Program-made: the position numbers and the translations under genes | Source of the DNA: an uncultured Pseudobdellovibrionaceae bacterium | Lineage (GTDB): Bacteria; Bdellovibrionota; FAC87; UBA2466 | Assembly: GCA_964492125.1 (NCBI GenBank) | Contig: CAZBJE010000005.1 | Coordinates: 8,964 to 72,963 of the forward strand | Direction: 5' to 3' | DNA: 64,000 nt | Part shown: one piece after another, positions 5,792-41,260 of the stretch | How the letters are laid out: every line of letters starts with the position of its first letter | Numbering within the stretch: position 1 is the stretch's first letter | The notes under the pieces: model-generated | What the model saw: the letters and a program-made list of their open reading frames with translations, nothing else | Databases searched by the model: none | What the model was told of the DNA's origin: nothing

Positions 5792-6068
5792 TCTATTTAG
5801 TGTTCCTACCGTCTGTATACTGCAAGCGCCGAACCAACCGCCCAAGTGGCGAAACTCCTCAGGAATTCGCCGTATGCAGGCTCTGGAAAGTGTGTGTTCT
5901 TCTCGCTCTCGTACACGCTGTATACAGTTCCCCTCGGGGCCGTATACGGGCGCACTGTCGAACAATTTGACAGTCGGTTCGGCCCCTCTTTGTGCCTGAT
6001 CACCGCTCTGGCATGGGTTGCACCAATGGCAGCTGAACGGGTGCGTTTAACGCCCCCAGGGAGGCCCT

Positions 6069-10773: not shown

Positions 10774-11952
10774 ATGTCAGAAACCATCGTGATCGTCGCC
10801 GCCAAACGTACCCCTTTCGGGGCCTTCGGGGGCAGTTTCAAAAACCTTACCGCGACCGACCTTGCGGTTACCGCCGCCCAAGCCGCACTGGCTCAGGCAT
10901 CCGCGGTACCCACCGATATCGACCATGTCATTTTCGGCAACGTGGCCCAGACCTCGGTCGACGCGATTTACTTGGCGCGTCATGTCGGCATCCGTGCCGG
11001 GTTGCCGATCGAAGTTCCGGCCGTGACGGTCAATCGCCTCTGCGGATCCGGGTTTGAAGCGCTGATTCAAGGGGCACGCCTAGTGCAAACCGGCGAAGCG
11101 CGCGCGGTTTTAGTCGGCGGAACGGAAAGTATGACCCAGGCACCTTACGTGTTGCGCGGCGCCCGATTCGGTTACCGGCTCGGCAACAGCGAACTCGAAG
11201 ACAGCTTAATGGCCGGACTCACGGACTCCATTCCCAAAACGCCGATGGCGATCACCGCTGAAAACCTCGCGGTGAAATACGAAATCTCCCGGACGACCTG
11301 CGACGAATTCGCGTTACGCTCGCAAAAGCTGACCCAAGCCGCGATCCAGGCCGGCCACTTCAAAGAGGAAATCACCCCGGTAACCCTAAAGGGCAAGACC
11401 GGTGACACCGTTTTTGACAAGGATGAACACCCGCGCGCCGATAGCTCCATCGAAGGGCTTACGAAGCTCAAAGCGGTTTTCAAGAAGGATGGGGTAGTTA
11501 CCGCCGGTAATGCCAGCGGCATGGTGGACGGCGCCGCGGCGCTTGTGGTCACCAGCGAAAGTTTTGCTCAAAAAAAGGGCTGGACCATCTTGGGAAAACT
11601 GCGCGGATCACACGTCGTAGGTTGCGAACCTTCCATTATGGGAATCGGACCGGTTGGGGCGATTACGGGCTTGCTCGCCAAGACTGCGACGACTCTTAAT
11701 GCCATCAAACTCATTGAAGTGAATGAAGCGTTTGCCGCCCAAACACTGGCGGTAGAAAAACAATTGGGCTTACCTCGCGAGAAACTCAACACCGACGGGG
11801 GTGCGATTGCGATCGGGCACCCCTTGGGTGCGAGCGGTGCGCGGATCACGGCCCACTTGCTCTATGCCTTGAAGCGCCAAGGCGGCGGCCTAGGCCTTGG
11901 TTCGGCTTGCATCGGCGGGGGCCAGGGAATTGCGGTTCTTGTCGAAGTATAG
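10774..11952 (+). CDS. Acetyl-CoA C-acetyltransferase (thiolase II)
   Basis: 392 aa from internal ATG 10774, with a GGAGAGG RBS at 10763-10769. N-terminus is MSETIVIVAAKRTPFGAFGG. The active-site Cys is in NRLCGSG and the C-terminal motif is GLGSACIGGGQGIAVLVE. The ORF-track start at 10645 adds a Pro-rich leader unlikely to be real. Confidence 0.9.
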   Translation: MSETIVIVAAKRTPFGAFGGSFKNLTATDLAVTAAQAALAQASAVPTDIDHVIFGNVAQTSVDAIYLARHVGIRAGLPIEVPAVTVNRLCGSGFEALIQGARLVQTGEARAVLVGGTESMTQAPYVLRGARFGYRLGNSELEDSLMAGLTDSIPKTPMAITAENLAVKYEISRTTCDEFALRSQKLTQAAIQAGHFKEEITPVTLKGKTGDTVFDKDEHPRADSSIEGLTKLKAVFKKDGVVTAGNASGMVDGAAALVVTSESFAQKKGWTILGKLRGSHVVGCEPSIMGIGPVGAITGLLAKTATTLNAIKLIEVNEAFAAQTLAVEKQLGLPREKLNTDGGAIAIGHPLGASGARITAHLLYALKRQGGGLGLGSACIGGGQGIAVLVEV

Positions 11953-14224
11953 ACTTCTTGCCGTCGCCTGCTTGCTGGGGGTTTTGGCGGGAGAATTGCG
12001 CGCCGAAGTCCCAAAGGGCGTGCAGTTTAAAGCCGACTATTACCAGCGCGATCTCTCCAGCAATACTTTGCGGGGCAAAGGCAACGCATGGATCCGTAGC
12101 GGCGGCCAAGAACTCTTTGGCGACGAAATTGAAGTCGATTTCGGCACCAATCTTGGTACCGCCAGCGGCCACGTGCGCATGGTCGACGGCGACACCCAGG
12201 TCACCTGCGCGCATGCGAGTTTCAATTTAAAGGGGCAAGACGCAACCTTCGACAAAGCCACACTCGCCAGTGGGCAAATGGTGGTTACCGGTGAAACCAT
12301 CCGACGCATCAATGCGCTGGAGTACGAAGTACTCGAGGCCACCTACTCCAATTGCAACGTGGATCAAATTGCGCCGCCCGAAGCGGGAATTTGCCCGATG
12401 GATTGGAAGTTTTCTGGTCGCCGGTTTCGCATCACCATGGGTGGTTATGCGCATTTCTACGATGTCATGGTCAGCGCCAAGGGCATTCCCTTTTTCTACA
12501 CCCCCTACGCAATGATCCCCGTGAAGACCGAGCGGGAAACCGGCTTCCTGATGCCCACCATGCCCTGGACCGCTACGCTCGGCACCGGGGTGGGCTTGCC
12601 TTTTTTCTGGGCCATCAATGAATGGTCGGATCTTTTGATTCGCCCCACCTACTATTCCAGCACCGGCGTGCACCTGGGGTTGAATTACCGCTACGCTTAT
12701 TCGCCGGACAAAAACGGAACCTTTAATCTCTTCCTCGCATCTCGCCGCTTCAGCGGCCCGGACAACCCCAACCCCGACGACACCAGCCGTGGACGTTGGC
12801 TGGGAATATGGGGCGAAGGCGCAGTAGAGGCCATGAACATTTATCGACTCACTGGCTCGCGCCTGCAGAGCAGACAAATGCTCAATTTCGTGAGCAACCC
12901 CTACTACACTTATGACTACGCGGCCGACGTAGGCCGGCGCGCCGACCTAGGTAACTTGCGTTCTCAAGTGACTCTCACCATGCCCGGCGACGAGTGGATG
13001 ATGACGGCGCAAGCGCAGTATTTACAGTCGCTGGTCGTGTCGGCACCCAACGAGCCCACCAACCCGAACACACTCAATATCGATGGCGGTGGAGCCAGTC
13101 AGTTGCCGATCATCACGGTTGCCAAGACCACCACCCCGTTTTTGGGGCAGTTGTTTTCGTACGAGCTCGATACCCAATTCACTAATTTCACCCGAAGTAC
13201 GGCAACAGACGTTCTGACCAATAATTCGCTCCCCTCCACTATCACGCCATTAGCGGCACCGGTGGACTACGTGCGTACTGGTCGACGGCTGCAGATTGAA
13301 CCACGCTTGGTCTTCAACGTCCCGGCGCCAGCAGGCTTTCAGATTCAGCCGCTCCTACGGACCGGCACCTTGTTCTACCAATTCGACGCGCCTCAGCCGG
13401 CGGTACGCCACCGCGAATACCTCGAAGTGGAAATCCCTTTCGCCATGCAGATGTCGCGGGTTTTTAATACGTCGATCGCTGGCTTTGAGAAGGTCAGCCA
13501 CGTTTTCCAACCGCGCTTTATTTATTCGGGAAGTCTTTTACAAACCGGTGGAGACGATCACGCATTTTTTTACACCGACGCCGCGCGTGGTTTATCCAAC
13601 CCACGTTTTGACATCATCGACCAGATCACCCCGTTCGAATACATGCGTTTTGAATTGATTAACCGCTTTCAACGTAAAAACGGCGACAAAGCCGAACGCT
13701 TTTTCTGGTTTCAGGTTTCGGAGCAGTACAACTTAAAAACGTCCGCAAGCGATCCTCGTTTCATCAATGCCCTGGGACCGATCGAGCTATTTAGTTCTTT
13801 GAGCTTGGGCAAGTACAGCATGCAGCTGACCGCTACCTTTCCGCTGCAAGAAACCACAAAACTGCTCGACCAAGCCGTTACGCCAGTGCGCGAGTCGACG
13901 GTATCCACTGGGATATCCTACGCGGCCGGCGGCAAAAATCTGATCTCGCTCAACGGCCTATACCGGCTCTCCGCCAATCCGGCACTCAATGCGCAGATGG
14001 CGAATTTGTACTTGTTTCAAGAGTTGCCTACCTTTTTCGATTTTGAAGGTTCGGTGGAGTACAACTTCATCACCCATAAGATTTACGGCTATAAAGTAGG
14101 TTTGCACTTTCGCTCCAAGCCGCGCTCCTGTTGGGCGTTTTCAGTGGCGGTGGGCCAGAACTCTTTTGGCACCCAGTTCACCAATCTGGGCTTTAACCTG
14201 AACTTGGGGTCCCCGAGTGGCTGA
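11897..14224 (+). CDS. lptD: LPS-assembly protein LptD (OstA family)
   Basis: 775 aa with an OstA-like N-terminal domain (GNAWIRSGGQELFGDEIEVDFGTNLGTASGHVRMVDGD) and a long C-terminal beta-barrel. The start is uncertain; the annotated ATG overlaps the thiolase 3' end by 56 nt. Confidence 0.8.
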   Translation: MVRLASAGARELRFLSKYRLLAVACLLGVLAGELRAEVPKGVQFKADYYQRDLSSNTLRGKGNAWIRSGGQELFGDEIEVDFGTNLGTASGHVRMVDGDTQVTCAHASFNLKGQDATFDKATLASGQMVVTGETIRRINALEYEVLEATYSNCNVDQIAPPEAGICPMDWKFSGRRFRITMGGYAHFYDVMVSAKGIPFFYTPYAMIPVKTERETGFLMPTMPWTATLGTGVGLPFFWAINEWSDLLIRPTYYSSTGVHLGLNYRYAYSPDKNGTFNLFLASRRFSGPDNPNPDDTSRGRWLGIWGEGAVEAMNIYRLTGSRLQSRQMLNFVSNPYYTYDYAADVGRRADLGNLRSQVTLTMPGDEWMMTAQAQYLQSLVVSAPNEPTNPNTLNIDGGGASQLPIITVAKTTTPFLGQLFSYELDTQFTNFTRSTATDVLTNNSLPSTITPLAAPVDYVRTGRRLQIEPRLVFNVPAPAGFQIQPLLRTGTLFYQFDAPQPAVRHREYLEVEIPFAMQMSRVFNTSIAGFEKVSHVFQPRFIYSGSLLQTGGDDHAFFYTDAARGLSNPRFDIIDQITPFEYMRFELINRFQRKNGDKAERFFWFQVSEQYNLKTSASDPRFINALGPIELFSSLSLGKYSMQLTATFPLQETTKLLDQAVTPVRESTVSTGISYAAGGKNLISLNGLYRLSANPALNAQMANLYLFQELPTFFDFEGSVEYNFITHKIYGYKVGLHFRSKPRSCWAFSVAVGQNSFGTQFTNLGFNLNLGSPSG

Positions 14225-16560: not shown

Positions 16561-19500
16561 GTGGGGCTGGTGCGGCGTTTATTCTCAAATACATGGGCGA
16601 TCTGCGTTTTCCTCGCCATCGCCTTTTCCTCCACCGTTTGGGCACAACCCTGCCCCCCGGAGCTGCTGAAATTCGCCCAAATCCAGGAAATGCTCGCGCA
16701 GGGCACTCCCGGTGCCCAGGAACTTCTCCAATTCCCAGCACCCTTTCTCCGAGACAGTTTCGCACAACTTGAAGAGCACCAAAGTATTGGACTCACCGTT
16801 CTGTACCCAGAGGCGTTTGGCTACTTTCAGCACCATCTCCTCAAGACTCTCTACGCCGAAACGCCCGATAGAGTTTCTCCGCGAGTAAAATTGGAGGACA
16901 CCTGGTCGGAGTGGCTTGTTCTAGAATCCCTTCAGAGCCCCACACAAATACCGCTGCGCGATCATCTCGGGCTCGCACCCATCGATCTTTCGAGTCGGCC
17001 GGTTGTACTGTCTGAAGCTCACCGCCAGCTGCGCTCCCAGCATTGGATCTCCGCCGATGCCGTACCGCTTTTTTGGTCTCCCGTTTTCAGCCATTTGGAA
17101 TGGCTCAAGCAGTTTGGGTGTTCGCGCGAAAACGGTGTGCAAAGCTGGCTTTCCAACACCAGTTGCTTGGGCACATTGCGCAGTCTCTACGGGGCATTGA
17201 CCGAAGCGTGGTTATTAGCGCCTCGGGAAAACTGGATCCCTGGCGGAGCGATTCGGGTGGGAGGAAAACTCCATGCCGACGGATGGAGAATTTCGTTTGA
17301 GGGCGGACATCTTGTTCTCGAGAGCCTCACCGAAATCAAACCAAGCCTTGTGCGTTTTCACGCACGGGGGATGTACCAGATCCACGGCTTCCTGGAGCGA
17401 CTCTTAGAACCGGGCGCGCGGATTGAGGTTTATGGGCAGAAAATAGATACTGGCAAACTCCGCATCCGAACAAAACACGGTCTTGTGTCGCTTCCTATGC
17501 TTCGATCGCTCTTGGGAGCCCAACACTTCGAGAAATCGTCGATAGTCCTACCCGGCGCAGAAGCGCCCCCCATCGCCTACGACGGACGTTGGGGTGGTTT
17601 TGTGAAGCAATTTGAGGCGACTTTTGAACCCGAGTTTTTTGAATCGGTTCTGCCAAAGGACGAAGTGCCCTATGTCGCCTCCCACTTGGTGCATTTGCAA
17701 AATCGACCCGTTGGCATACAAACCCCAGGCCTATTCACTTTGGCGCAAAACCGGCAACGCTTTATTCAATTCATGGCATCTGTCATGGGGGATCCAGAAT
17801 CCGAGCCGCTCTTAAGTGCCGCGATCTTTCTAAAAGAAACGCATGAACACCGGGACCTTTTAGTGCATGTGGCCGTGCCAGGGACGTCCGGGATCGCGGA
17901 ACCAACCCCCACGGCACTGGAAAATCTCGACCCTCGAATCAAGAACGCAGACTACGCAGCTATTTTGGAGGAAGCAGTCCACCGCGACGTTTCCTATCAC
18001 CCCTTGGAATACCCAGCCAACACGCAAAAACGAGAGTTTCTCCTGCGCGTGCTGATGCCGTACGCGGGTTGGCGCACCCTGCTTTCAGCACCCTCCGCTT
18101 TCCGCCAGGTGGCTATCGACGACACTTCGCTCACTATTGAGCCGTACGGCAGCATGATGCCACTACGGGTAGAGTGGGTGCCTCAAACTATTTTGTCGGC
18201 ACCCGTTTGGGAAACCACCGGTGTACGTACCTTGAAAATCCCGCACGGGTACCGCTGGCCGAGCGATTCTTCGCTTTTTGAATTTTTCGACTACGGCTTG
18301 GTCAACCACGACCTGCATCGTTTCACGGCACCGGAGTGGGTAGAACGCCAACGCGCCGGACTCGGTGAGCCACGAGTAATCCTCAAGCCTGGCCAAAAAT
18401 ATATCTTGGATCGCTTTCGCACTACCCTCGATGCAAACCCGAACACTCGCCTGGAAGTCTACATACAAGGCCCCATGGCATACGGGAAAACCCTGATCCT
18501 CCACGAGGCATTGAAGGACCTTATCCGCCGCTCGCCATCTGGCACGACCAAACGAAACCTCTTTTTCGTTGTGACAGGCCAAAAACGGCTCGTTGAGCAA
18601 ATTTCGACAGAGCTCAAACGCAAGCGAGCACACGACCTTTCCGAGCCGGTGGATTTTACGCATCTCTCGTGGGAGACAGGAAATTCTCGCCAGCAATTCG
18701 GTTCTCTTTCGGAAATAGCGGATAAAGCGGCGCTCGAGGCGGCATCTGGCCGCACCGTGGTGGTTACTGTGAACTGGAGCTACCTAAACCAACGCACGAA
18801 AGAATCGTCCCCGGAGGCGATCGAGCGACTGAAAAACCAGCTAGCGGGCTTTTTTATCGACGAAGCGAATCAAGCTGGCGCTGACAGCAACCTAAACACC
18901 GTTTCCAACCTCACGGAAAATGTTCCAGAGATGGTCCTCTGGGGCCAAGAAGCTGTTGGGATAAACCGCAAAGTCATCCAAGACATCTTTCATGGAAATA
19001 TCTGGTGGGTAGTACCAACCGAAAACGAAAACCAAGATCCTGTCCAAGCTAGCCTCAGCCAAATGACCCGCAGCGTGCGCGACGGCCTGATTGCGCCAAT
19101 GGCGGAAAATGCCAGCGATAAGGTACTGATGCACTTTACGCCAGAGCAACTAGTCCGCAATCGTGCGCTACCTAAAGGCGCACAACCGCGGATGATCTAC
19201 CGAACAATTGCCGATGCTACACACCGCGAAGCGCTTTACGGGTACCTTGCGAATGACCTCGACCAAATGCTCCTGCGACACCGCGGCCTAATTCGAGTAG
19301 AAAACCAGCAACAGGCTTCGGACCTCGCAAACTACCTGCAGGCTTACCTCCATCGCGCGCGTGAATTGGAACCTTCTCGCCCGCAGCGCACCATCCGGGC
19401 CTATTTCGACGGCTCGCCCGATCACGATGGAGTGTATAGGGGACTTTCCAAAACCGAGGGCGCCGATCGCGTCGATTGGGCGGTGGTAGTTAAGCAATTT

Positions 19501-22500
19501 GATGGCGGCATCGATATTCCCCACCTCAGCGGACTGGTACTGATCACCGAAAAGATTGATCCGGAAACTTTCTTGGAATTTTTGGGCCGCTCATTGCGGC
19601 TTTACCCGGGCAAGGCACCGGTCGAGATTGTACAAATATCCGCGGCTCCCTCTTTGCCGGAAAGCCTTCTGGCGGGGCTAAAACGCAAACAGGAGGCTTT
19701 AGATGCCGCGGTTAGTTCCACCACCGGAGTACCGTCAGGAGATATTCCACCCGTCGTACTCGATACTCTTTCGCCCGTGGCTGTCCCCCAGGCGCCTGCT
19801 CCCGAGGCGGTCGCTCAAGTGGAGGCCAAGCGCCGGATAGCCTTTTCTCCGATCGGAATTCTTCCCGAGCTGACGGGTTCTCGCGATCAGATCCTTATTT
19901 CTCAATTGGCTCGGCTGGCGATTCACTTCGATAAGCCGAAACTTCAATGGGTACAAAACCATCCCGAAGCAGAGCTGCAATACCAAACGGAAATGAGAAT
20001 ACTGCTAGAATCGATCACGGATCTGGCGCCCAACTCCGTGCTTTCAGATTTTATTCGAAATTCAGATAGCAAACAGGATCCACGCCGTTTCGAAGTGTGG
20101 ACCCTATTCAACTATCTTCTGGCACCGGTGATGGACGAGTTCGTGCTGGTGCACCGCCCAGCCCAACCACCGGCAGAGCCGAGAGTATTTGAAGCGGAAT
20201 ACGAATTGGGTATTTACGAAGGCGGTGAAGAGAGGATTCTTCGGTACGTGCGCGCTGGGCCGAGCACCCAATTCACTTCCTGGCCTCCCACTGGCTATCC
20301 ATTAGAAAACCGACTGAACACTTTGCAAGCCAGGTGGCCCGAGGAGTGGCAGGATTTTCCCCAAGATACACCGCTTCAATCACTTGCCTTTGGGATAACA
20401 GAGCTAACCAAGCGATCCCACCAGTTCGCTATCGAGCTAGCACGGTGGCTTTCGATCAAGGCAAACCAGAATCCAGATCCACAGACCGTGCTGTTGTGGA
20501 CTGCCCGTTTTGGCAAACTGATTGACTGTTACCGTGCGCTTTTGCCCAACGAACCGAACCTCGAAGCGGCGGCGCGTCGAGTAGCATTCGGAAGCTTTGA
20601 TTTACAAAATTTACTTGTTTTTGCGGGTCGACTGCAAACAGATCTCCGTTTGCGTTACTCTCCGTTAGAGAGACTCCCTCTGCAGAAAACATGGACAGCT
20701 AGACTCTTTCCCCTTCCAGACTTTGAAGTAAATCTCCACGCGGACGTTCAAAAACTGGAAAGCGCCAGCGCCGTTCGGCCAAAAACCAAGCTGAACGCAA
20801 CCGAGATACATTCGATGGTGGACCCCTGGTTGGATCATCTGGGCGAAAAACTACCCGGCGAACGCAAACTCGTCGTGGAGGCCTATGAGTTTTTGAAGAA
20901 GGTTCAAACGACGTTGCGAAGAGCCAGGGATACTTCAAGCCCCATAGATTGGCAGGAACATTTTGAGTACGCCGAGGTGACACCAGAGAACCTCGTTGAA
21001 GAGCCTACTAAGAAGCTCGTCGTTATTCGACCTGGAGAGCTGGGCTCCCTGTCGGGCAACGAATGGGAATCGAAGCTAGCGTGGGTAGTCAAAGCAAAAG
21101 CATTGTTAGATCCGCGCAAATACGCGCTGGTTGAGAGCGAAATGAAAACCCGGGTTCCCGAAGGCCTGCAACGCCGTGTCTTTCTAAATTCGTGGCGCGT
21201 CCTGGAAATCATTCGGCTAGACAACGCTGTGATGGCAGTGGTCCGACGCTTTGGCGTTCAATCTGAGTTGGCAAAGGCGCTAATTTCAGAACTCGATTAC
21301 CTGAAAAACTTTGTGGCAACCGACGATCCCTCGAACCTTCTATCTTTTTTGAAGAACTCGCCGGTTCACTCGCGTCCGCTATCCACCCAAGTTCCATTTA
21401 CATTTTTTCTAAAAATGATCCCTTCGACAGAACTCATTACACCATCCGAGATCGACCTGAATAACCCAGACTCGATAATGGATCGCCTCCTCGGATACCC
21501 GGCTGAGGCTTCGGCGATCGTCGCTAGCCCGCTGGGCGAAAAAACGAGGCGCTTCTCAAATGTAGCCTCCCTGCTCTTCTTAGGTCCGCAAGACAGACGC
21601 ACTTTCGAACTAGACGCTCTGGTCAGAGTAGTAGGCCCCCGCCTTTCTGCTGCTCCCGAGCTCGAATACGAAGTGCGCTATTCACCAGAAATCTTGCTAG
21701 ACATGGATGCACAAATCGGCGGAACGCCCAAATTAGCAAAGTGGCCACTCACTGAGCAGATAGCAAAAGAACGAGTGGCGACACTGAAAGTTTCCGGGCC
21801 TTCTGCGCTCGATCAATTCGCCAACGCATGCGCCGCGCTCCACTTCTACCTTACAGCTGCCGGAGTTGAGGCAGAGCGGGCGTCTTGGCTTCTCAAAGGT
21901 GGTCAAACGGAAAGAATAAAGGGACTCATCCAGCAAGCCGACTTGTACCTTCGAGAGGGTTTGAGATTGAGTGCCGCACTCTTTGGCGGTGACGAACGTT
22001 TAGCGTTGCTCAAGCGAGTGTATGAGGAGAGTTATTCGGAGCAATCGAACCACCAGGCGGGACCCCTGCGGCAATCGGAGTTGATTCAAGGCATAATGAT
22101 TTCCGCCCACCACTGGATTAACGAACACTATTTTTCCATTGGCACGAGTAACCCTGAGACGGATCGATTCTTGATGCGAGCTAGTCGTTTTGCTTCCGTC
22201 CAAAAGGAAATAACGCTGAAGCAATTAAACGCCGACATTGCGAAGCTCGACCGTGCTGCTTCCTCTCTATCCGGCGATTCGAAACCTGACGCCGACTGGT
22301 TGGAGAATCCTCGCCAGCAGATAGGCGCAATCGTGAATCCGTGGTCAGACAACGAAGGGCTGCCACTACCAAGAGACCCAGGTGAAATGGCCCGATCGGC
22401 CTCTCAATTCATGCGAGAGATTCTCAACGACCTACGACAGTATGCAAACACCCCGGACCCGTTGCCTCTTGTGACAAGAATAGCATTCGCGCCCCCAAGC

Positions 22501-25476
22501 GTAGCCACCCTGCAAGGCGAGGATCCATTTGCTGTTGTGGACCTTCCACTATCGCTTTCCACGCAAGAAATTGCCGCACTACAGGGCGAGCGGCGTCGGC
22601 TTGCCGTTGCCGCCTTATTCAAGCGTATCGTGGCTCTGGTCGTCGCTGAACCCGCCATGGCTATTAATCGGGCGGAAGGGATAGGCGTCCGGATGACGGC
22701 TTTTATGTCTGCCTGGTCAATACTCCACCGAGCCCGACTGGCCGATGCCACTCGAGGGCTTGAAGCTCTCCTGGGTTCTGAGTGTGATCTGGTGCGCTTA
22801 TTGCGAGAACATATTCGGACATACACACCAAATCTGTCCAACACTGCCTCTCTCACTGCAGAATTCATGCGACTCCGCGATACCCTTTGGCGGTATTACC
22901 CGACCCTTATGGTGGCGGACATCCAAGGTCTAAAGCGTTCCGTTGCTCCGCTTACACTCCCCGCCACGGAAAAACTTGGAAATTGGAAGCGGATGCTTGG
23001 CTACTCTCCGCATACTCTTTCCGAATTCCCAGAAATTACACCCGAGGAAGAATTCCTCATGGGAGCGGGATTGGCGCGCCCAATCGATAATTTATTGACG
23101 CTGTCATTCGAGCCGGATCTAGAAGAACGCCTACGAAAAAGCTCTGTAGCAACCAGGACTGCGCTCAGAGACAAGTGGCTTGCCCAAAATCCGGAGGCCA
23201 AAGCCGACCGATTCGCGGCTGTCGCCAAAACGATGCTGCAGTTGGAATTTATGGTGGCTAAAATTCGACAGAAATTAGATGTCAAAAATGCCATTCGCCA
23301 AGTTCAGGAGACCGATAGGTTGCGGGGCATTTTATTGGAGCATTTAGGTGAACTGCGCAGCCTCTTAGTCACTATTTTCCCGGAAGACCCGCTCCTTGCT
23401 GAACTTGTGCAAGACGAGCCGGAGAATACTTTCGAAGTTGAAGCACTTCTGAAGTACTTGGATGAAACCTACTTTCTTTCTCTTCTACAGGCTGGCAGTC
23501 CACCGCTCCACGGGGAATACAAGCCGGGTAACTTCCCCATTTTGACCAAACCCCAGGCGCTAGGCGCGCTCAAACTCATACGCTGGAAAAGTGAAAACAC
23601 TCCGCACATCCCTCTGCAACAACCCACCGGAGTCGAGGCGGCGAAAGCAGTATTGGATGTAATTCGTCAATTGGAAGAGACGCTACCCACCCAGTGGACC
23701 GCTGAAACACGCGTGGGGTTTGTCTCGCAGCTCCAACTACTCCATCACCGCTTCACAGAGCCTGTCTGGGGCAAGAAGAATGCTTTCGTGCCGGGTATTT
23801 CTGCTTTGATTGAGGCCCTTTCTGATGGAACCGACGCTTCTGGCGACGAAACCACCCGGCGAATTAATCGAGCGTTAAACGACGACACATTCGCATTGGG
23901 AAGGCTTGCACTCCTAATTCACCCGACATACTTGACCGACAGTGGAGAAATAGAAGAGCAAGAACTCGCCTTGCTTTTTTCGGAAGGCGCAAAACAAAAG
24001 GTGGCCGCATTAGCGCCAAAGCCCAACCAGAACGCCGAAATAGCGGATGCTGGCTTGGAACACTTAGTGGTTTCTCAATTACTTCTGATGCAGAATATCC
24101 CTAGCGATACCGGCCCACATATAAGAACGGATGCACTGAAGGAATGCCTGAGACTTGCCCTATCTGAGTTACAGCTGGCCTATTCCTACGATCCCTTCTT
24201 CCAGATCGCGGCATTCAAACAAAATATCGCGGGCGACTCGGCATTTACCACTGTTGGATTATTGGCACTCACCATAGACCGTCTTTTCCAAATTCACGCC
24301 ATCAATCTATGGGGTCATCTGTATCGCCACCCTCTGTTCGAAGCCATGAACGAAATTTTCGTTCGCAGGCCCGACGCAAACCCAGAGCAGATCATAGAAC
24401 TTCTCCGCACCACTGAATTCAAGCAGCAGATCCCCGACACGGAGGAGGCGATGGCGGTGGTGCGACGTATGCATAGCCTCGACCGGCCGGCACCCACAGA
24501 CGCTAAGCAGGCAATTGAACTCGCGCGAGGTATTCTCCGTGACCCCTATTGGACTCGGAGCGCTGCACCCACCTCTGCCCAAGCTACGGCGATTCAATCG
24601 CTGGTGAAGTGGATGACCGTTCTAAGTGAGGCGAACTCAAATATCGATAGAATGGATAAACAGAAGCAAGCAGCCTCTCAGATAGCAATCGCTTCTATGA
24701 AAGCCAGTGTGCAGAAGGAACTTGCCGACGCTTTCGGCGAGAATTGCTCGATTCTTGCGCGGCTAGACAAATACGAAATCACGCGGGGCGCCCACGTGAT
24801 GAAGCTTCTAGAAATGGAGCTCGCGGTTCGCTTTCCGTGGAAAACAACCCCACCAGACGCCGCGATCAGCCAGCTCTTCAGTCCTAGCCCTGTTGCGATG
24901 AAAGCCTTTCCCCTTTCGCGAGAGCAAGCGCAGAGTCGGCTCCAGAAGGCTGGGTTAGGCGAAGATTTGGGCTCGGCATTCAAGACGATCATCGAAACCC
25001 TCGCGCTCACGCAGAATGCCGCCAATCGAAACCTGGTTAGAGGGGTTCCCGCCAACGGCACACTAGAACCCATAGTATTCCAAATGGTGGGGGCACTGAG
25101 CGCCTTGGTGCCAGAGGACGCCTACTTCTCCGCACTTTTGGAAAGCAAGGTATGGAAAACGCAAATGCTCCACTATGGCGCTATCCACATCCTTTGCGAG
25201 GCGTTGTTAGAGAGGATCCAATTCTATCCGTTCTACGGATCCCTAAAGACCGGCCCCATTCATCGCCCTCTCCATGGGATGGACGATATGCTCCAACGTG
25301 TTACTACCTACAAGACGGTCATCGAAAGAGGCCCGCAAAGCGACGAAGCCGCCTACGCTCAGGCCATTGGTGAACTGCCTTATTTGGAGCGTTTTTTAGA
25401 TCCTAAAAGCGAATTTTCTGAAGAAGAGAAAATGGTCGAAGCAACGCTCCACTTGGACAAGCTTATCCAGCCCTAA
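16561..25476 (+). CDS. Giant (2971 aa) signal-peptide-bearing protein with an internal SF2 DEAD/DEAH-like helicase/ATPase core; function unknown
   Basis: Single ORF of 8916 nt with a GTG start; an alternative GTG at 16570 has better GGAG spacing. The Sec-like N-terminus is MGLVRRLFSNTWAICVFLAIAFSSTVWA/QP. Motif I is GPMAYGKT (aa 637-644, nt 18469-18492). Motif II is FFIDEANQ (aa 764-771). A motif V-like element FDGGIDIPHLSGLVLIT lies at aa 979-996. Motif VI is FLGRSLRL (aa 1007-1014). The flanking ~600 aa and ~1950 aa are non-repetitive with no recognisable domain. Confidence 0.8.
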   Translation: MGLVRRLFSNTWAICVFLAIAFSSTVWAQPCPPELLKFAQIQEMLAQGTPGAQELLQFPAPFLRDSFAQLEEHQSIGLTVLYPEAFGYFQHHLLKTLYAETPDRVSPRVKLEDTWSEWLVLESLQSPTQIPLRDHLGLAPIDLSSRPVVLSEAHRQLRSQHWISADAVPLFWSPVFSHLEWLKQFGCSRENGVQSWLSNTSCLGTLRSLYGALTEAWLLAPRENWIPGGAIRVGGKLHADGWRISFEGGHLVLESLTEIKPSLVRFHARGMYQIHGFLERLLEPGARIEVYGQKIDTGKLRIRTKHGLVSLPMLRSLLGAQHFEKSSIVLPGAEAPPIAYDGRWGGFVKQFEATFEPEFFESVLPKDEVPYVASHLVHLQNRPVGIQTPGLFTLAQNRQRFIQFMASVMGDPESEPLLSAAIFLKETHEHRDLLVHVAVPGTSGIAEPTPTALENLDPRIKNADYAAILEEAVHRDVSYHPLEYPANTQKREFLLRVLMPYAGWRTLLSAPSAFRQVAIDDTSLTIEPYGSMMPLRVEWVPQTILSAPVWETTGVRTLKIPHGYRWPSDSSLFEFFDYGLVNHDLHRFTAPEWVERQRAGLGEPRVILKPGQKYILDRFRTTLDANPNTRLEVYIQGPMAYGKTLILHEALKDLIRRSPSGTTKRNLFFVVTGQKRLVEQISTELKRKRAHDLSEPVDFTHLSWETGNSRQQFGSLSEIADKAALEAASGRTVVVTVNWSYLNQRTKESSPEAIERLKNQLAGFFIDEANQAGADSNLNTVSNLTENVPEMVLWGQEAVGINRKVIQDIFHGNIWWVVPTENENQDPVQASLSQMTRSVRDGLIAPMAENASDKVLMHFTPEQLVRNRALPKGAQPRMIYRTIADATHREALYGYLANDLDQMLLRHRGLIRVENQQQASDLANYLQAYLHRARELEPSRPQRTIRAYFDGSPDHDGVYRGLSKTEGADRVDWAVVVKQFDGGIDIPHLSGLVLITEKIDPETFLEFLGRSLRLYPGKAPVEIVQISAAPSLPESLLAGLKRKQEALDAAVSSTTGVPSGDIPPVVLDTLSPVAVPQAPAPEAVAQVEAKRRIAFSPIGILPELTGSRDQILISQLARLAIHFDKPKLQWVQNHPEAELQYQTEMRILLESITDLAPNSVLSDFIRNSDSKQDPRRFEVWTLFNYLLAPVMDEFVLVHRPAQPPAEPRVFEAEYELGIYEGGEERILRYVRAGPSTQFTSWPPTGYPLENRLNTLQARWPEEWQDFPQDTPLQSLAFGITELTKRSHQFAIELARWLSIKANQNPDPQTVLLWTARFGKLIDCYRALLPNEPNLEAAARRVAFGSFDLQNLLVFAGRLQTDLRLRYSPLERLPLQKTWTARLFPLPDFEVNLHADVQKLESASAVRPKTKLNATEIHSMVDPWLDHLGEKLPGERKLVVEAYEFLKKVQTTLRRARDTSSPIDWQEHFEYAEVTPENLVEEPTKKLVVIRPGELGSLSGNEWESKLAWVVKAKALLDPRKYALVESEMKTRVPEGLQRRVFLNSWRVLEIIRLDNAVMAVVRRFGVQSELAKALISELDYLKNFVATDDPSNLLSFLKNSPVHSRPLSTQVPFTFFLKMIPSTELITPSEIDLNNPDSIMDRLLGYPAEASAIVASPLGEKTRRFSNVASLLFLGPQDRRTFELDALVRVVGPRLSAAPELEYEVRYSPEILLDMDAQIGGTPKLAKWPLTEQIAKERVATLKVSGPSALDQFANACAALHFYLTAAGVEAERASWLLKGGQTERIKGLIQQADLYLREGLRLSAALFGGDERLALLKRVYEESYSEQSNHQAGPLRQSELIQGIMISAHHWINEHYFSIGTSNPETDRFLMRASRFASVQKEITLKQLNADIAKLDRAASSLSGDSKPDADWLENPRQQIGAIVNPWSDNEGLPLPRDPGEMARSASQFMREILNDLRQYANTPDPLPLVTRIAFAPPSVATLQGEDPFAVVDLPLSLSTQEIAALQGERRRLAVAALFKRIVALVVAEPAMAINRAEGIGVRMTAFMSAWSILHRARLADATRGLEALLGSECDLVRLLREHIRTYTPNLSNTASLTAEFMRLRDTLWRYYPTLMVADIQGLKRSVAPLTLPATEKLGNWKRMLGYSPHTLSEFPEITPEEEFLMGAGLARPIDNLLTLSFEPDLEERLRKSSVATRTALRDKWLAQNPEAKADRFAAVAKTMLQLEFMVAKIRQKLDVKNAIRQVQETDRLRGILLEHLGELRSLLVTIFPEDPLLAELVQDEPENTFEVEALLKYLDETYFLSLLQAGSPPLHGEYKPGNFPILTKPQALGALKLIRWKSENTPHIPLQQPTGVEAAKAVLDVIRQLEETLPTQWTAETRVGFVSQLQLLHHRFTEPVWGKKNAFVPGISALIEALSDGTDASGDETTRRINRALNDDTFALGRLALLIHPTYLTDSGEIEEQELALLFSEGAKQKVAALAPKPNQNAEIADAGLEHLVVSQLLLMQNIPSDTGPHIRTDALKECLRLALSELQLAYSYDPFFQIAAFKQNIAGDSAFTTVGLLALTIDRLFQIHAINLWGHLYRHPLFEAMNEIFVRRPDANPEQIIELLRTTEFKQQIPDTEEAMAVVRRMHSLDRPAPTDAKQAIELARGILRDPYWTRSAAPTSAQATAIQSLVKWMTVLSEANSNIDRMDKQKQAASQIAIASMKASVQKELADAFGENCSILARLDKYEITRGAHVMKLLEMELAVRFPWKTTPPDAAISQLFSPSPVAMKAFPLSREQAQSRLQKAGLGEDLGSAFKTIIETLALTQNAANRNLVRGVPANGTLEPIVFQMVGALSALVPEDAYFSALLESKVWKTQMLHYGAIHILCEALLERIQFYPFYGSLKTGPIHRPLHGMDDMLQRVTTYKTVIERGPQSDEAAYAQAIGELPYLERFLDPKSEFSEEEKMVEATLHLDKLIQP

Positions 25477-26219
25477 GGAATGGGCGAACCGCACGCTTCA
25501 TTCGCGGCACGAGACAGAAAGAGCATTCGCAGCAGATCATTTGTTTGAGCCGGGTCTTCCGCTGCGGCCAACCGGCCCTCAATTCTGGCAAGCGTTTCAC
25601 CGTCCAGTAACCGATCTTTTGCAATTTGCCGGACCTGTTCCGCTCGACTGTTGGCCCAGACACGAAACTCCGACGCATCCTCGGGGTAGGATTCGTAGTC
25701 GACGGAATCAACAAGAGAAGTATCGGGATCCCAGTTCGATCGATCGACCTTAAAACGAAGTGCTTTTCCGCCAAAATCAAAAGATAAATAGTTCGCCCCC
25801 ATTCGACCGACTTGGTCCAAAAGTCCGGCGCGTTCAGAATAAAGGGAACTTGCTTTGAAAACCGGATCGGCGTTTACGCGTTTGGCTAGTTCGGCTGCCG
25901 ACTCCAATACGGCGGCCAAAAGCGCTTCGTAGTCCCCGGCTTGGTAAGCCGCTTGGAGCCGAGCCTCGGCAGTCGGCGCCCAGAGTCGTTGTGCTTCCAG
26001 TGATTACCGGCTACGAGGCAAATCCGTATAGAGCTCGGTATAGGACTGTGCCAGCGTGGTTCCACCCGCTACAGGGCGATCTCGCAGCTGCTTCAAAACA
26101 AACGGAGCCCGAAAGTTTTCGCACGCTTTATCAGTCGCTGTTTGAACTACTGTCGTAGCCACCGGGCGACTGCACCCAGCCAAAAAAATCAAAACAAGGG
26201 GCATCAGGCATCTAGTCAC
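25473..26219 (-). pseudogene. Lipoprotein gene interrupted by a single in-frame TAA (pseudogene, sequencing error or two-piece gene)
   Basis: The 71-codon ORF starts MTRCLMPLVLIFLAGCS (lipobox LAGC) and ends at TAA 26004-26006. The same frame stays open for 27 codons with no ATG (SLEAQRLWAPTAEARLQAAYQAGDYEAL), then joins the 148-aa ORF 25473-25919, whose listed start is a TTG. The total is ~247 codons in one frame. The 3' end overlaps the giant gene stop convergently. Confidence 0.5.
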
Positions 26220-26525: not shown

Positions 26526-28181
26526 CTAAATTTCCGACCGGATCCCCCCTTGGAACAGCCACTCACCATTGAAAATGCCCAGCGTCCAAAGCGGCGCAAA
26601 ACGGGGTGAGCGCTCACTGAGAAACTGCAGCTCCAGACCGGCGCCCCAGCGGGATGCGCTAGGCAAGCCCGCTAAGTCGACAGCCACCGCTCCCAAAGAG
26701 GCGTATGCGCCCACGCGCAACCACGGCAGCAACTGGTAGCGGTAGGTCGTCCACAATGCCGCAGCCTGAGACTCCAGAAGCCGGTATTCACGAATGCCGG
26801 GCATGTCTGTGTCTCCCAAATCCGACAAGGCATTAAATGGCACCGTACCGTCGGTCGCGAGCAAGGCCGCGTTCACGTGCAGCGTATTGCGCAGATTAAT
26901 GCGAATGTGCGCCGCTCCCTGCAAGCGAGTGCGCGTAATCAAGACGTCGCCGGGTTCGGTGAAGAGCCACTCCTGGCGCAAGCGCCCAAAAAATCCTTGG
27001 CGAGGAGCTACTGCCCGATCCCGAGAATCCCAAGAGGCTTCCACCACGATGCCTTGCATGGATTTCCCGACCAAACCACCAGGCAACGGATCCGACGCAA
27101 AGTTTCGCCGCGTAACCCCTGCAGCCAGTTCTAAATTTTCCCAAACTGGCGCCGACAGAACCGCGTCGATATCCCAACTCGTCGTACGGAAATCACTTCG
27201 GGCCCCATAAACAGAAGCCATCCCCAAACCAAAATAATCGCGCACTCGATGAGACGCAGAAAACCGACCGACCAAACGCAACGGGGCTATCCATTCGCTC
27301 TCGGCTAGTTCGAGCTCTCCCCCGACGTTGCCGCGCGTAGAGGCCATCACCGCCGCCGTGCCACTTCGGCGTCGATCCCCCAACCGATCGTCCCAAACTC
27401 GCAAGCCCGCCCCAATGCCGCGCGCAGGTGAAGCCCCGAACAGAGGCGCCCAACCATACCCCAAAGCGTCGAAGCTGCGCGGTTCGCTGCGTTTCAAATG
27501 CAAAACCGCACGGGGGTCCGACGGACTGAGTTTTGCCGCCCGCTCCATCGCTTCCCGGGCCAGTGGCAAATTCCCCTGCCGTTCCAGCGTCAACCCCAAC
27601 CAGTAATCCGTTCCCGGGGCGGTGGGGGCACTGCGTTCGAGCACGCGCCAAGACATCAGCGAATTGCGGAAGTCTTGCCCAAATACCGGAGAGAGAGCAG
27701 AGCGTAGGCGCCCCGTAACGTGCAATCTTTCCGCGTCGTCGGCTTCACCCAATAAAATATTCTGCGTATCCGACGCTAAACGCTTGGCGCTGAAGTAGTG
27801 CATCCAGGGCAACCCCTGGGCGGTGCGCTCGGCCCCGGCCAATGCGCAGACAGAGGCAGCCCGCGCAGTCAGTGGGCCAGTGAGACTTTCGTAGTGACTC
27901 ATGCGCCAACCCACGCAGAAATCTTCCACTTTGGCCCACGCGCGCTGCGCAGCGTGGGGGTGGCCCGCTTCTCTCTCCAGCGCACCCAATGCCAACCAAT
28001 GCAGTGCCTGTTCCAATTCGGACTGAGGAGAGGAATCGCCGTACGTCGCCAACCGCCGAGTCAGCGTTTCGGCGTCGGCGTTCTGCAATTGTGGCGACAG
28101 AAAACTGGTGTCGGCGCAAACCACGCCACTGAAAACCAAAACCCATGACCACCTGCGCCAAGCAAAAAAAAGATTTCCCAT
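26526..28181 (-). CDS. Outer-membrane beta-barrel protein, Omp85/ShlB-like family (tentative), with helical TPR-like N-terminal region
   Basis: The start is chosen at MGNLFFAWRRWSWVLVFSGVVCA, which looks like a signal peptide. The C-terminal ~300 aa have amphipathic beta-strand periodicity and a TRG motif reminiscent of the VRGY/F loop 6 motif. The terminal residue is not aromatic, which lowers confidence. Confidence 0.4.
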   Translation of the reverse strand: MGNLFFAWRRWSWVLVFSGVVCADTSFLSPQLQNADAETLTRRLATYGDSSPQSELEQALHWLALGALEREAGHPHAAQRAWAKVEDFCVGWRMSHYESLTGPLTARAASVCALAGAERTAQGLPWMHYFSAKRLASDTQNILLGEADDAERLHVTGRLRSALSPVFGQDFRNSLMSWRVLERSAPTAPGTDYWLGLTLERQGNLPLAREAMERAAKLSPSDPRAVLHLKRSEPRSFDALGYGWAPLFGASPARGIGAGLRVWDDRLGDRRRSGTAAVMASTRGNVGGELELAESEWIAPLRLVGRFSASHRVRDYFGLGMASVYGARSDFRTTSWDIDAVLSAPVWENLELAAGVTRRNFASDPLPGGLVGKSMQGIVVEASWDSRDRAVAPRQGFFGRLRQEWLFTEPGDVLITRTRLQGAAHIRINLRNTLHVNAALLATDGTVPFNALSDLGDTDMPGIREYRLLESQAAALWTTYRYQLLPWLRVGAYASLGAVAVDLAGLPSASRWGAGLELQFLSERSPRFAPLWTLGIFNGEWLFQGGIRSEI

Positions 28182-28258
28182 TCTTTCTCCCGAGCCGGAG
28201 CTTACCAGCGGCATGCCGTCATTGCGAGTAACGGCGGTCGGTGCCAAAATGGATCAAC

Positions 28259-30710: not shown

Positions 30711-32780
30711 TCAATCAGCCCCTGCCCCCTCTTCGCTAGCTGATTCCGTCGAGGCCACCGCATTCTGCAAAATACGACTGGCGCAATTGCTGCGGTGCTT
30801 AGCCACCCGTTGCTCGGCAATTACTCTCCACGTATGGAACGCCGCGCCTTCATAGGTAGTGGGTGCGGGCCTCTTTTTATACAGGGCCTCTCTCCGAGCG
30901 CTGTCATGATTCACCTCCGCGGCGCGGTAGGTGAGCGGCTTGCCCAACTTTTCAAACTCCTCGATGGTGATAGCGGTATTCAACCCGCCACCGACCGCGA
31001 AGATCTCGTCCGAGCCAGTGAGGAAAACCTCCAGCGCGGGGGTATGGGAACCATCGGCGTTCTTGCCTCCCCAGTTCTTGTCGTCGATGAGGACCAAGTG
31101 ATCTAGGTTACTCGAAAAAGTGCCGGAATAGCGGAGAGCCTGGGTCGATGCAATGCCCATGGTCTCAAAGCCCATCCCTTTGGCGAGTTCGTACACCCGA
31201 GAAATGCCTTCCTTGGTCCCGCCGCAGTTCACAATATCCTTGGCCGGATCCATCGACCGCAATTTTTCAAGGAGGATCTCGTCTACCACCTTGGCATACT
31301 GGTAACCATTAGCGGAATTTCCCATGAACGTGACAATGCGTTTACTCCCCTTGATCTCGCGCATCTTGGCGATGGCCTGCTGAGCACCGAGCGGTTCCGT
31401 GACAGTGCGCGGACCGGTTTGAGTTCCTTTGGCTTCGTCCGCTTGCTGAGCCAATTTTAAACCTTCATACGTGAACTTTTCCGGACTGCCTTCCTTGGAG
31501 TTGATCCATCCCAAGAGAGTGTCGTCGTCGGGGTACTCGGTGAATTCCAAAATCTGGAAAAGCTTCTTCGCCGCTTCTAATATTGCTTCAGGAGTGCGGT
31601 AATCCGGTGGCACCACGTAATTCTTCGGTGCAGTCGGATCGTCAAAGAAACCGTGAATGAGCTTGTTGTAAACATTGGCCAGTAGCGCCAGTGCTCGGTC
31701 ATGAATGAAATGGATGTTTACGGGGGTTTCGCGGCCCTGGTTGGCGCGCGATCCGCTGGCCAAGTTACCAGTCTCGGTGCGCATCGATTCATGATCAAAG
31801 TGAGCGCCAGGGGCTCTCTCTAACATCACTTCAAAGGGTTGGGTGATGCCAGGACGACGCAACAAATCATCGATAATCCATCGGCGATCCGCGGGCAGCG
31901 CGGATTCGTGCAAAATTTCAAACACCAACACCCGCAGCATGGCCCGCTTGGCGTAGGCGTCGCGATCGGCCTTCAGCGATATCTTCTCCAAGTGCGGCAT
32001 CAACGTGCCGGTGATGAATTTATCCATCCTCCGGTACATCGCCATCTCTTGGTCAAAAGTAGTGATGCCGTTTTCGCGCAGAGTGAGAAAAAGATATTCC
32101 ACCATGCGGCGAACGTGATTGAGGTCGTGGTACCAAAAGTCTAAGGGAGTTTGGTAATGGCGATCGACGCGCAAACCTTGAGTGGCCACGCCGATCAAAC
32201 CAAACGGCACCGAACGTACTTGAATCAATTCGTTGAACCCCAGGCTTTCAAAGGTGGGAATAATCACCACCCGCGGATCCGACATCATGCGGTGGCGGTG
32301 GTACATGTAACGATCGAAGTGGTACAGCGGCACGACTTTATCCGGGTTGCGCAGCCGATCCACTTTATCGAAAAGGCCCACCGCGCGTTCGATGGCGTCC
32401 AAGGTCGGGCGGTACGGGTAGATGCCCTCAAAAGGGGTGGCATAAGGATAACGAGCTTGGTCTTCGTACGAGAACTCGATGTTCACGTGAAAGAGCAACG
32501 TGCGGACTTCTTCCAGCTCCATATTGAGCGTTGGATTCTCTGCGATGGCCTTCAAAAACCAATCGGCTTTCAGGTCCGCCAAAATCCGATCGACCACTGG
32601 TTTGAATTCGGGAAAGGAGGCATTGGCCCCCTGGGTCCGCAGCCGCTTGGTCATTTCCTCGTAAGTTCCCACCGGATCCCGCACGATCCGCTCCTCGAGG
32701 GTCTCGCCCGCCTGTAAAGGGGCGGAACAAATCAGCAAAAGGCAGGTGATGCGCGCATAAGCGGATACGAGTTTTCTCAC
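30711..32780 (-). CDS. Secreted two-domain protein: novel ~450-aa N-terminal domain + C-terminal LOG/SLOG (TIGR00730-like) Rossmann domain
   Basis: Signal peptide MRKLVSAYARITCLLLICSAPLQA/GE. Residues ~480-620 (nt ~30920-31345) are colinear with LOG proteins: VTFMGNSANG aligns with VFCGSxxG, NCGGTKEGISR with GGGxxGLM, HLVLIDDKNW with the substrate loop, and AVGGGLNTAITIEEF with PGGxGTxEE. The N-terminal 450 aa (e.g. DFWYHDLNHVRRMVEY) are unassigned. Confidence 0.6.
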   Translation of the reverse strand: MRKLVSAYARITCLLLICSAPLQAGETLEERIVRDPVGTYEEMTKRLRTQGANASFPEFKPVVDRILADLKADWFLKAIAENPTLNMELEEVRTLLFHVNIEFSYEDQARYPYATPFEGIYPYRPTLDAIERAVGLFDKVDRLRNPDKVVPLYHFDRYMYHRHRMMSDPRVVIIPTFESLGFNELIQVRSVPFGLIGVATQGLRVDRHYQTPLDFWYHDLNHVRRMVEYLFLTLRENGITTFDQEMAMYRRMDKFITGTLMPHLEKISLKADRDAYAKRAMLRVLVFEILHESALPADRRWIIDDLLRRPGITQPFEVMLERAPGAHFDHESMRTETGNLASGSRANQGRETPVNIHFIHDRALALLANVYNKLIHGFFDDPTAPKNYVVPPDYRTPEAILEAAKKLFQILEFTEYPDDDTLLGWINSKEGSPEKFTYEGLKLAQQADEAKGTQTGPRTVTEPLGAQQAIAKMREIKGSKRIVTFMGNSANGYQYAKVVDEILLEKLRSMDPAKDIVNCGGTKEGISRVYELAKGMGFETMGIASTQALRYSGTFSSNLDHLVLIDDKNWGGKNADGSHTPALEVFLTGSDEIFAVGGGLNTAITIEEFEKLGKPLTYRAAEVNHDSARREALYKKRPAPTTYEGAAFHTWRVIAEQRVAKHRSNCASRILQNAVASTESASEEGAGAD

Positions 32781-38516: not shown

Positions 38517-38580
38517 CTCCTGATTGAGGGTTTGTGCGGAATGCGGGAAACTTAAATTGTGACGGATAGATGAAGGAGAA

Positions 38581-40120: not shown

Positions 40121-40338
40121 GGGAAAAAGTATAGCAGCCAAGGCTAATTATACGGTGCACCAAAAGATTATGTGCATCCCTACATTTTTTTCTCATGGTT
40201 CCTGCATTTTGTGACGAATGAACTTGTAGATAGAGTCTCTGCTCCTGGGTGATGGAGGTCCGGCATAGGAACCTCCAACCAAGTCGGTAAGGATACCGAC
40301 TTTCGCGCTTAAACGCGGAGGAGTTCAACGGAGGATGT

Positions 40339-41169: not shown

Positions 41170-41209
41170 TTATCCTCGCAAGAGGAACGAAGTGCCAACC
41201 CAGAAGTTC

Positions 41210-41247: not shown

Positions 41248-41260
41248 GGTTGGCTAGAAA

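Follow-up and report, generated by a model that had tools for sequence, protein, structure and literature searches.

Textbooks place helicases in the cytoplasm, since their work requires both adenosine triphosphate (ATP) and nucleic acid. What, then, might a helicase motor be doing in a giant bacterial protein that begins with a signal for export? The question is posed by a single gene in a 64,000-nucleotide stretch (the window, throughout this text) of contig CAZBJE010000005.1 from an uncultured Pseudobdellovibrionaceae bacterium. The gene occupies positions 16561..25476 of the + strand and is one open reading frame (ORF) of 2971 codons plus stop, 8916 nt without interruption. The runner-up in the window encodes 775 residues and is about four times shorter; on the length and integrity of the frame the ORF list agrees with the original prediction, an earlier reading of the letters alone. 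Residue numbers follow that reading (residue 1 is the codon at 16561). The answer that we favor, with about an even chance of its being correct, is that the giant protein is an exported nuclease-helicase effector that acts on prey nucleic acids in a Bdellovibrio-like predator.

The helicase family and the motor core

A word-indexed protein search with the giant protein matches only the protein itself and P0002, a metagenomic protein of 2723 residues encoded on two contigs that are independent and come from different samples. Identity between the two proteins is 55% across the first 1070 residues, including the signal peptide, and about 20-21% beyond. The word-indexed search, queried with the protein and with two alignments, is nearly blind to the family, which was recovered by an exhaustive hidden Markov model (HMM) search: a profile of the first 1070 residues, run against 1.84 billion representatives, finds 108 proteins at E<=1e-3, 57 of them at E<=1e-10. 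Because the indexed search missed nearly the whole family, its negatives cannot be equated with absence where families are divergent. Pattern scans detected no relatives in GTDB species representatives (the source genome is not one of them), JGI metagenomes or IMG/VR, and a phage origin finds no support.

The relatives fall into three groups. Three to four of them have the full N-terminal architecture: P0004 (2182 residues), P0005 (3070 residues), and P0003 together with the ORF that follows it in locus L013. About 85 proteins of 800-1300 residues match the profile only at positions ~490-1035, beginning about 50 residues from their own N-termini, and about ten match only positions ~156-369. 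The family is thus well established. It is an undescribed clade of superfamily 2 (SF2) helicases that look exported (72 of the 108 are positive by a heuristic described below), with at least 100 members, of which the giant protein is one. The original prediction had called a motor of this type in an export-targeted giant protein highly unusual, but the protein does not stand alone. The relative in L013 (10001-15583; GCA_036704275.1, a 3.77-Mb contig with 44% GC) is about 1860 residues long and contains two frameshifts (frames 2, 1, 2), which split it into ORFs of 829 and 870 residues; it is either a pseudogene or a product of indel errors. To judge from its number, JBAJGS010025920, the contig may be a bacterial chromosome within a far larger assembly.

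The motor core, residues 611-1035 (18391..19665, + strand), consists of two RecA lobes of the ResIII/Helicase_C type, as indicated by the alignments, the Pfam matches of the relatives, an AlphaFold2 (AF2) model and Foldseek. The motifs named in the original prediction are all present where it had placed them, and in the alignment each stands opposite its canonical counterpart in relatives scoring above the Pfam thresholds. The Walker A sequence GPMAYGKT, which contains K643 (18469-18492, +), aligns with APTGxGKT, and the Walker B sequence FFIDEANQ, which contains D767 and E768 (18850-18873, +), aligns with YDEAHH. Motif V, KQFDGGIDIP (19492-19521, +), is part of VKQFDGGIDIP, which aligns with VRxLDEGxNxP. 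Motif VI, EFLGRSLRL (19576-19602, +), aligns with LQRxGRxLRL and keeps G1009 and the arginine fingers R1010 and R1013, with Q replaced by E. Furthermore, the segment VVTGQKRLVEQI aligns with VVADQxxLVxQL of the relatives. At the position of motif III (18937-18957, +) the giant protein reads LWGQEAV where the relatives have GTTATP, and the TAT is lost.

Taken alone, the giant protein has no above-threshold match in Pfam, NCBIfam, PADLOC, PHROGs or PDB sequences. Its local matches are all below threshold: AAA_16 with E 0.012 (16.6 bits vs a cut-off of 32.6), the phrog_16 helicase with E 1e-3, dnd_restrict_1 with E 1e-3, and PADLOC PbeA with E 2e-4 over 62 residues that cover motifs V-VI. The Pfam gathering thresholds of ResIII, Helicase_C and DEAD are passed by eight of the nine short relatives scanned, the ninth, P0006, having no match. 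The AF2 model of residues 480-1070, computed from 73 sequences, has a mean predicted local distance difference test (pLDDT) score of 89.8 and a predicted template modeling (pTM) score of 0.88. Foldseek finds 591 PDB matches to this model at E<=1e-3, and all of the top matches are SF2 proteins: RadD, XPB, LlaBIII (type ISP), MDA5/LGP2/RIG-I, FANCM, Swi2/Snf2 proteins and SauUSI. SF2 membership rests on transitive homology and fold, because the giant protein itself is sub-threshold in Pfam. The profile libraries therefore give the motif set no significance in the protein's own sequence, whereas the homology of its relatives and the structure model settle the matter. With both taken together, the SF2 assignment of the modeled core, as made in the original prediction, can be regarded as secure.

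Export signal, nuclease-like domain and tail

The N-terminal residues 1-28 (16561..16644, +) constitute a Sec-type signal peptide with an RR n-region, the h-region WAICVFLAIAFSS and the c-region TVWA/QP, in which the stroke marks the cleavage site. The uncharged hydrophobic run WAICVFLAIAF follows the two Arg residues, V-W-A/Q occupies positions -3 to -1, and the segment aligns with that of P0002 from residue 5. Signal peptides were scored with a strict heuristic, which is not a dedicated predictor and demands positive charge in the n-region, a hydrophobic core of 10 uncharged residues and a -3/-1 site. The giant protein passes, as do the 72 relatives mentioned above, compared to 17 of 1418 control segments (1.2%) taken from internal methionines. 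Most of the negative relatives are truncated gene calls that start within a domain, or have hydrophobic N-termini that fail one rule. Signal-peptide-like N-termini are thus conserved in the family, in line with the signal peptide claimed in the original prediction, and we conclude from these sequences that the family is targeted to Sec. A Kyte-Doolittle scan found no further segment resembling a membrane span in the giant protein. Because the N-terminal span has a positive n-region, the bulk of the chain would lie outside the cytoplasm, whether the span is cleaved or not.

Cys31 (16651-16653) is located just after the cleavage site. The family proteins have a mean Cys content of 0.2%, and a Cys lies within 20 residues past the hydrophobic core in 64 of the 81 relatives that have a signal-peptide-like N-terminus, compared to 4% expected by chance. 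The lipobox of signal peptidase II, [LVI][ASTVI][GAS]C, is absent, the residues ahead of the Cys being A-Q-P here and A-A-T in P0002. A Sec signal alone assures only a periplasmic location (PMC3593177). In Bdellovibrio, nucleases that act on prey are expected to bear a Sec signal; those known so far are small and ATP-independent (PMC3593177).

The signal peptide is followed by a helical region, residues 29-185 (16645..17115, +), which is mostly helical in the AF2 model at low confidence and is conserved only in the giant relatives. Next comes a domain of about 190 residues, 186-378 (17116..17694, +), which we call 'HADGW' and which probably has a PD-(D/E)xK / RecB-type nuclease fold. It was aligned across the giants and the ten proteins that match this region only, several of which have signal peptides. 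The alignment contains invariant G, H-A-D, E-x-K-x-S and Q, and nearly invariant E, I, W, F and P. The conserved elements are E215 (17203-17205, +) within LYGALTE, H238-A239-D240 (17272-17280, +) within HADGW, E258-x-K260 (17332-17340, +) in the sequence E258-I-K260-P-S262, and Q273-x-x-x-F277 (17377-17391, +) with the sequence Q273-I-H-G-F277. Across 14-15 sequences D240, E258, K260 and Q273 do not vary, and E215 and F277 hardly do, and the PD-(D/E)xK catalytic motif set is thereby present.

The AF2 model of residues 29-490, based on 15 sequences, has a mean pLDDT of 73, with values of 76-97 over the HADGW domain. The succession of its elements fits what such a nuclease would have: E215 lies in a helix, two short strands come next, another strand begins straight after D240, the following one ends in E258-x-K260, and Q273 is in the helix beyond. 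The residue pattern is that described for HsdR and RecB-family nucleases; in HsdR, motif I is found in a helix beside a β-β-α core that carries motifs II, III and QxxxY (PMC2475608); the Y183F mutant of EcoR124I stays largely active (PMC2475608). Neither Foldseek against the PDB nor a PDB profile search confirmed the nuclease fold, and no significant match came from Pfam and PADLOC scans of every member of the domain or from hhalign comparisons with EcoKI HsdR and Mrr. Because the fold and profile searches found nothing, the assignment as a PD-(D/E)xK / RecB-type nuclease, predicted from the alignment and the model, is only probable. The original prediction could match the N-terminal ~600 residues to no family; part of this region has now been assigned, to the nuclease-like domain.

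The proteins that contain only the HADGW domain (P0022, P0031, P0035, P0040, P0041, P0050, P0053, P0057, P0079 and P0105) range from 169 to 1242 residues; N-termini resembling signal peptides are found in most of them, Pfam matches in none. These ten proteins share nothing but the HADGW domain, which is therefore a mobile module and forms a family of its own.

Between the HADGW domain and the motor there are two further parts. A helical linker, residues 379-479 (17695..17997, +), is seen in the AF2 model and is conserved only among the giant relatives. The 'pre-core' domain, residues 480-610 (17998..18390, +), is composed of a helix, a six-stranded β unit and further helices, and is modeled at pLDDT >90. 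Its consensus is FLxxxLPxxGxR...IEW...LxIPxGxxW...LVGHxLHPY...ERxxLGE. This domain is specific to the family, follows the signal peptide directly in the ~85 short relatives, and has no match to a Pfam family. The motor, in turn, is separated from the tail by a Pro/Ala/Ser-rich linker, residues ~1047-1095 (19699..19845, +), recognized by its composition and its low pLDDT. At the end of the core model the score drops, over five blocks of 10 residues, from 75 to 33, and it is <50 in residues 1054-1070, the last 17 of the model.

The tail, residues 1096-2971 (19846..25473, +), comprises ~1880 residues and evolves fast. About 50% of its residues favor helices, and on this composition it is probably α-helical. 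It has no family match in Pfam or NCBIfam and no PDB match, in keeping with the earlier view that it is not RHS, an adhesin, a non-ribosomal peptide synthetase or a polyketide synthase. Similarity can be detected only to the tail of P0002 (~21% identity, E 3.5e-6); the tails of P0004, P0005 and P0006 have no detectable similarity to it. Although the tail had been described as non-repetitive, it contains at least two homologous modules of ~480 residues. Module 1 spans residues ~1234-1722 (20260-21726, +); module 2 runs from residue 1723 (21727 to ~23160, +) and has WPLTEQ at 1728. Both start with a WP[LVMP][ST]-type sequence, and hhhPxDP/EP follows ~90 residues on. Module 2 matches both module 2 (E 3e-4) and module 1 (E 1.4e-4) of P0002. 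The P0002 tail has [WF]P[VMI][ST]xE at 1221, 1679, 2065 and 2458, with hhhPxDPhF ~90 residues after each. A four-module model of the tail was rejected, since of the P0002 segments only modules 1 and 2 pass leave-one-out HMM tests. The HMM of the P0002 modules gives a marginal score on the giant protein, 6.8 bits vs at most 2.0 in 200 shuffles.

Genomic setting

The giant ORF opens with GTG instead of ATG. Another GTG in frame, at 16570, is preceded by GGAG 8 nt upstream and is the start of P0001, an identical public protein of 2968 residues. This is the probable true start, giving a protein of 2968 residues. Scans for promoters and terminators around the gene found nothing that exceeds chance, and the window contains no paralogue of the giant protein.

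The window is chromosomal: it encodes LigA, PyrD, MutL, RelA/SpoT, a peptide chain release factor with a PCRF/RF-1 domain, SurE, flagellin and tRNA-Leu. LigA is 77-74% identical to that of metagenome-assembled genomes (MAGs) labelled Pseudobdellovibrionaceae or Bdellovibrionota, the 77% being to a Pseudobdellovibrionaceae MAG. This family includes Bdellovibrio and Pseudobdellovibrio (NCBI taxonomy), and the host therefore fits a predatory lineage, as had been supposed. One contig of a relative of the giant protein bears a gene with a Bdellovibrio Host_attach domain.

With a GC content at third codon positions (GC3) of 0.565 the giant gene is the lowest of the 24 genes in the window, the 23 others lying at 0.59-0.70, and its codon usage is otherwise similar. 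Comparing GC and codon usage with the flanks had been suggested earlier as a check on horizontal origin. Since GC3 is only modestly below that of the flanking genes and codon usage is close to the rest, the comparison does not establish a foreign origin. The bin of lowest GC in the window is 40001-42000 (0.484 vs ~0.55-0.60), a region with the flagellin gene (40339-41169) and a gene for a rhodanese-domain protein (41596-42216).

The patatin-like phospholipase gene that had been reported directly upstream is present. As a partner of the giant protein it was rejected: its product lacks a signal peptide, and the gene is not conserved beside the relatives. The convergent lipoprotein gene downstream (25473-26204, - strand) is decayed, as had also been reported. 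It begins MPLVLIFLAGCS, which includes a lipobox, and has an in-frame TAA at 26004-26006 (codon 67), past which the frame resumes as ORF 25473..25919. The gene is either a pseudogene or bears a sequencing error.

The loci of P0002, P0003, P0006, P0008 and P0012 share no neighbors with the window or with each other. Scans of ORFs across the window found no linked methyltransferase, specificity, immunity or secretion-system gene; the neighbors are housekeeping genes or have no assignment. The giant protein has no significant match to a PADLOC defence model. Nothing here points to a multi-gene system or a defence island. Bd1370, a helicase that is up-regulated early in predation and is annotated as an RNA helicase, could not be linked to the family.

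Some other ORFs of the window deserve mention. Seven long ones, of 251-689 residues, have no Pfam match (4763-5965, 6674-7846, 7866-9164, 9387-10142, 30711-32780, 35349-36470 and 37380-38615). Those of them that were also scanned against NCBIfam have no match there either, and the genome is rich in unannotated proteins. The region of the giant gene is flanked by two probable outer-membrane proteins. ORF 11897-14224, of 775 residues, matches LptD_2 in part; because it overlaps a thiolase gene at its TTG start, the true start is probably later. ORF 26526-28247 encodes a tetratricopeptide repeat (TPR) protein of 573 residues with a weak Omp85 match.

Possible function and relation to known systems

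If the giant protein is an effector of a predator, its precursor would cross the inner membrane via Sec and be cleaved after Ala28. The mature protein would then have to pass beyond the envelope, leave the predator and come into contact with prey nucleic acid. The first 1070 residues have an HsdR-like layout, because the nuclease-like domain precedes the SF2 core. By analogy, the nuclease-motor unit might bind duplex DNA, which would be that of the prey, track along it at the expense of prey ATP and cut it in the fashion of HsdR, provided that the domain is active as a nuclease. The variable tail could serve in targeting or as a scaffold.

Several points weigh against this explanation. ATP is absent from the periplasm and from the medium, and the motor would therefore be useful only inside a prey cytoplasm in which ATP remains. 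We know of no route for a protein of 325 kDa. Motif III lacks its S/T-A-T, motif V has DGG rather than DEG and motif VI has E rather than Q; with motif III lost and motifs V and VI altered, the coupling of ATP hydrolysis to translocation may be impaired. Furthermore, the giant relative P0004 has lost both Walker A (CPASYDTH) and Walker B (FLAQTE), and P0006 (1503 residues) has DQ in Walker B. That P0004 nonetheless keeps HAD/ExK/Q speaks for the nuclease-like domain.

The same observations would suit an exported protein that is not a motor at all, a periplasmic, surface or secreted pseudo-enzyme with a helicase fold for binding or scaffolding, which might bind DNA or another polymer without ATP and use its tail as a spacer. 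The lack of ATP outside the cytoplasm, the changes in motifs III, V and VI, the Walker motifs of P0004 and P0006, and the huge, poorly conserved tail all agree with it. However, GKT, DE and GRxxR are kept at invariant positions in the giant protein and in P0002, which is 55% identical over 1070 residues. Moreover, in about 85 short relatives the canonical motifs are complete, TAT among them, and the ones scanned exceed Pfam thresholds, as would not be expected of pseudo-enzymes. We regard this alternative as unlikely, though it carries some weight. A restriction, defence or repair nuclease-helicase, similar to HsdR, the type ISP enzymes, Hachiman or RadD, would place the protein in the cytoplasm or anchor it to the inner membrane, the hydrophobic segment being an uncleaved anchor or irrelevant. 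The order of nuclease and SF2 motor is that of HsdR (PMC2475608, PMC2602864), fold matches include RadD, LlaBIII and SauUSI as well as HamA and SduA, and there are the weak matches to PbeA (PADLOC) and dnd_restrict_1 (NCBIfam). On the other hand, the positive n-region would put most of the chain outside the cytoplasm, cleaved or not, the AxA-type cleavage sites are conserved, and the low Cys content and the conserved Cys after the signal fit exported proteins. No methyltransferase, specificity or partner gene lies nearby, the five other loci have no conserved neighbors, and there is neither a significant match to a defence model nor any to an HsdR model. This makes such an enzyme distinctly unlikely.

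The protein might instead remain in the predator's own periplasm and handle nucleic acid there, taking up or processing fragments of prey DNA at the envelope. A Sec signal by itself guarantees no more than the periplasm (PMC3593177), and no secretion-system gene is linked to the locus. Nevertheless, competence and uptake genes are missing from the neighborhood, and the periplasm offers no ATP to an SF2 motor, so that we find this possibility very improbable. An artefact of assembly or annotation, in which several genes were fused, would be in keeping with the MAG-type contig and with the frameshifts that split the L013 relative. The original prediction had allowed for such a fusion, but the same colinear architecture recurs in P0004, P0005 and L013 as well as in P0002, for which two samples yielded independent contigs, and the frame stays open for 8.9 kb with uniform codon usage. 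With four independent occurrences of the architecture, an artefact is effectively excluded.

The favored explanation, an exported effector, can be extended, tentatively, from one protein to the family. Predatory Bdellovibrionota may deliver a class of Sec-exported, ATP-driven SF2 motors into prey, powered by the ATP of the prey, to which the giant subfamily would add a nuclease and a hypervariable tail in order to dismantle the nucleoid. An exported SF2 clade, apparently in a predatory phylum, would mean either that motors are delivered into other cells or that the helicase fold has an ATP-independent extracellular role. If motors are indeed delivered into prey, they would be the first secreted helicases to be described as inter-bacterial weapons. 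The proteins are candidates in an old problem, that of the ordered breakdown of the prey chromosome by Bdellovibrio-like bacteria and of the proteins that enter the prey cytoplasm. Predation was not abolished when the known small exported nucleases were deleted (PMC3593177). Full-text searches of the literature turned up no account of secreted, exported, periplasmic or extracellular helicases or of predator helicase effectors; subscription journals lie outside this coverage, and the absence is not proof.

The closest parallel in layout is HsdR (EcoR124I, EcoKI, EcoAI), in which an N-terminal PD-(E/D)xK nuclease is followed by a ResIII/Helicase_C SF2 translocase and a helical C-terminal domain (PMC2475608, PMC2602864, PMC5248579). 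Unlike HsdR, the giant protein has a Sec signal peptide and an extra pre-core domain before the motor, lacks motif III, and carries a tail ten times longer. Furthermore, the ORFs scanned across the window include no HsdM or HsdS, there is no match to an HsdR model in NCBIfam, and hhalign against EcoKI HsdR was negative; the protein is therefore not a member of that group. LlaBIII, SauUSI, RadD and XPB are the best matches to the motor fold (Foldseek E 5e-12 to 6e-10, probability 1.00), and some of them also fuse a nuclease to a motor. However, they are only 12-16% identical, are cytoplasmic, have other nuclease types or positions, and possess neither an export signal nor a giant tail.

Among proteins of predators, the Sec-exported endonucleases Bd1244, Bd1934, Bd0934 and Bd3507 of B. 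bacteriovorus likewise have prey or extracellular nucleic acids as their presumed targets (PMC3593177), but they are small Endonuclease_1/SNase-type enzymes, independent of ATP, without a motor and not homologous to the giant protein. The Omnitrophota giants are also very large predator proteins with a divergent ATPase of a helicase superfamily, in their case SecA DEAD-type (bioRxiv 10.1101/2023.11.21.568195). They exceed 30,000 residues and have many transmembrane regions, and their SecA-like ATPase is thought to serve secretion, whereas the giant protein has one signal peptide, no further membrane span and a ResIII-type motor.

The nearest kin of the giant protein are its short relatives (e.g. 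P0007-P0030, of 800-1300 residues, named 'superfamily II DNA or RNA helicase' by JGI), which are homologous to it at E 1e-33 to 1e-10 and have the signal peptide, the Cys, the pre-core domain and the SF2 core in common with it. They lack the HADGW domain and the giant tail, keep TATP and DEAHH, and, unlike the giant protein, pass the Pfam thresholds of ResIII and Helicase_C. Thus the motor itself is of a known kind, being distantly related to the ResIII/Helicase_C SF2 translocases, while the export-targeted helicase clade, the nuclease-like and pre-core domain families and the giant modular tail are new.

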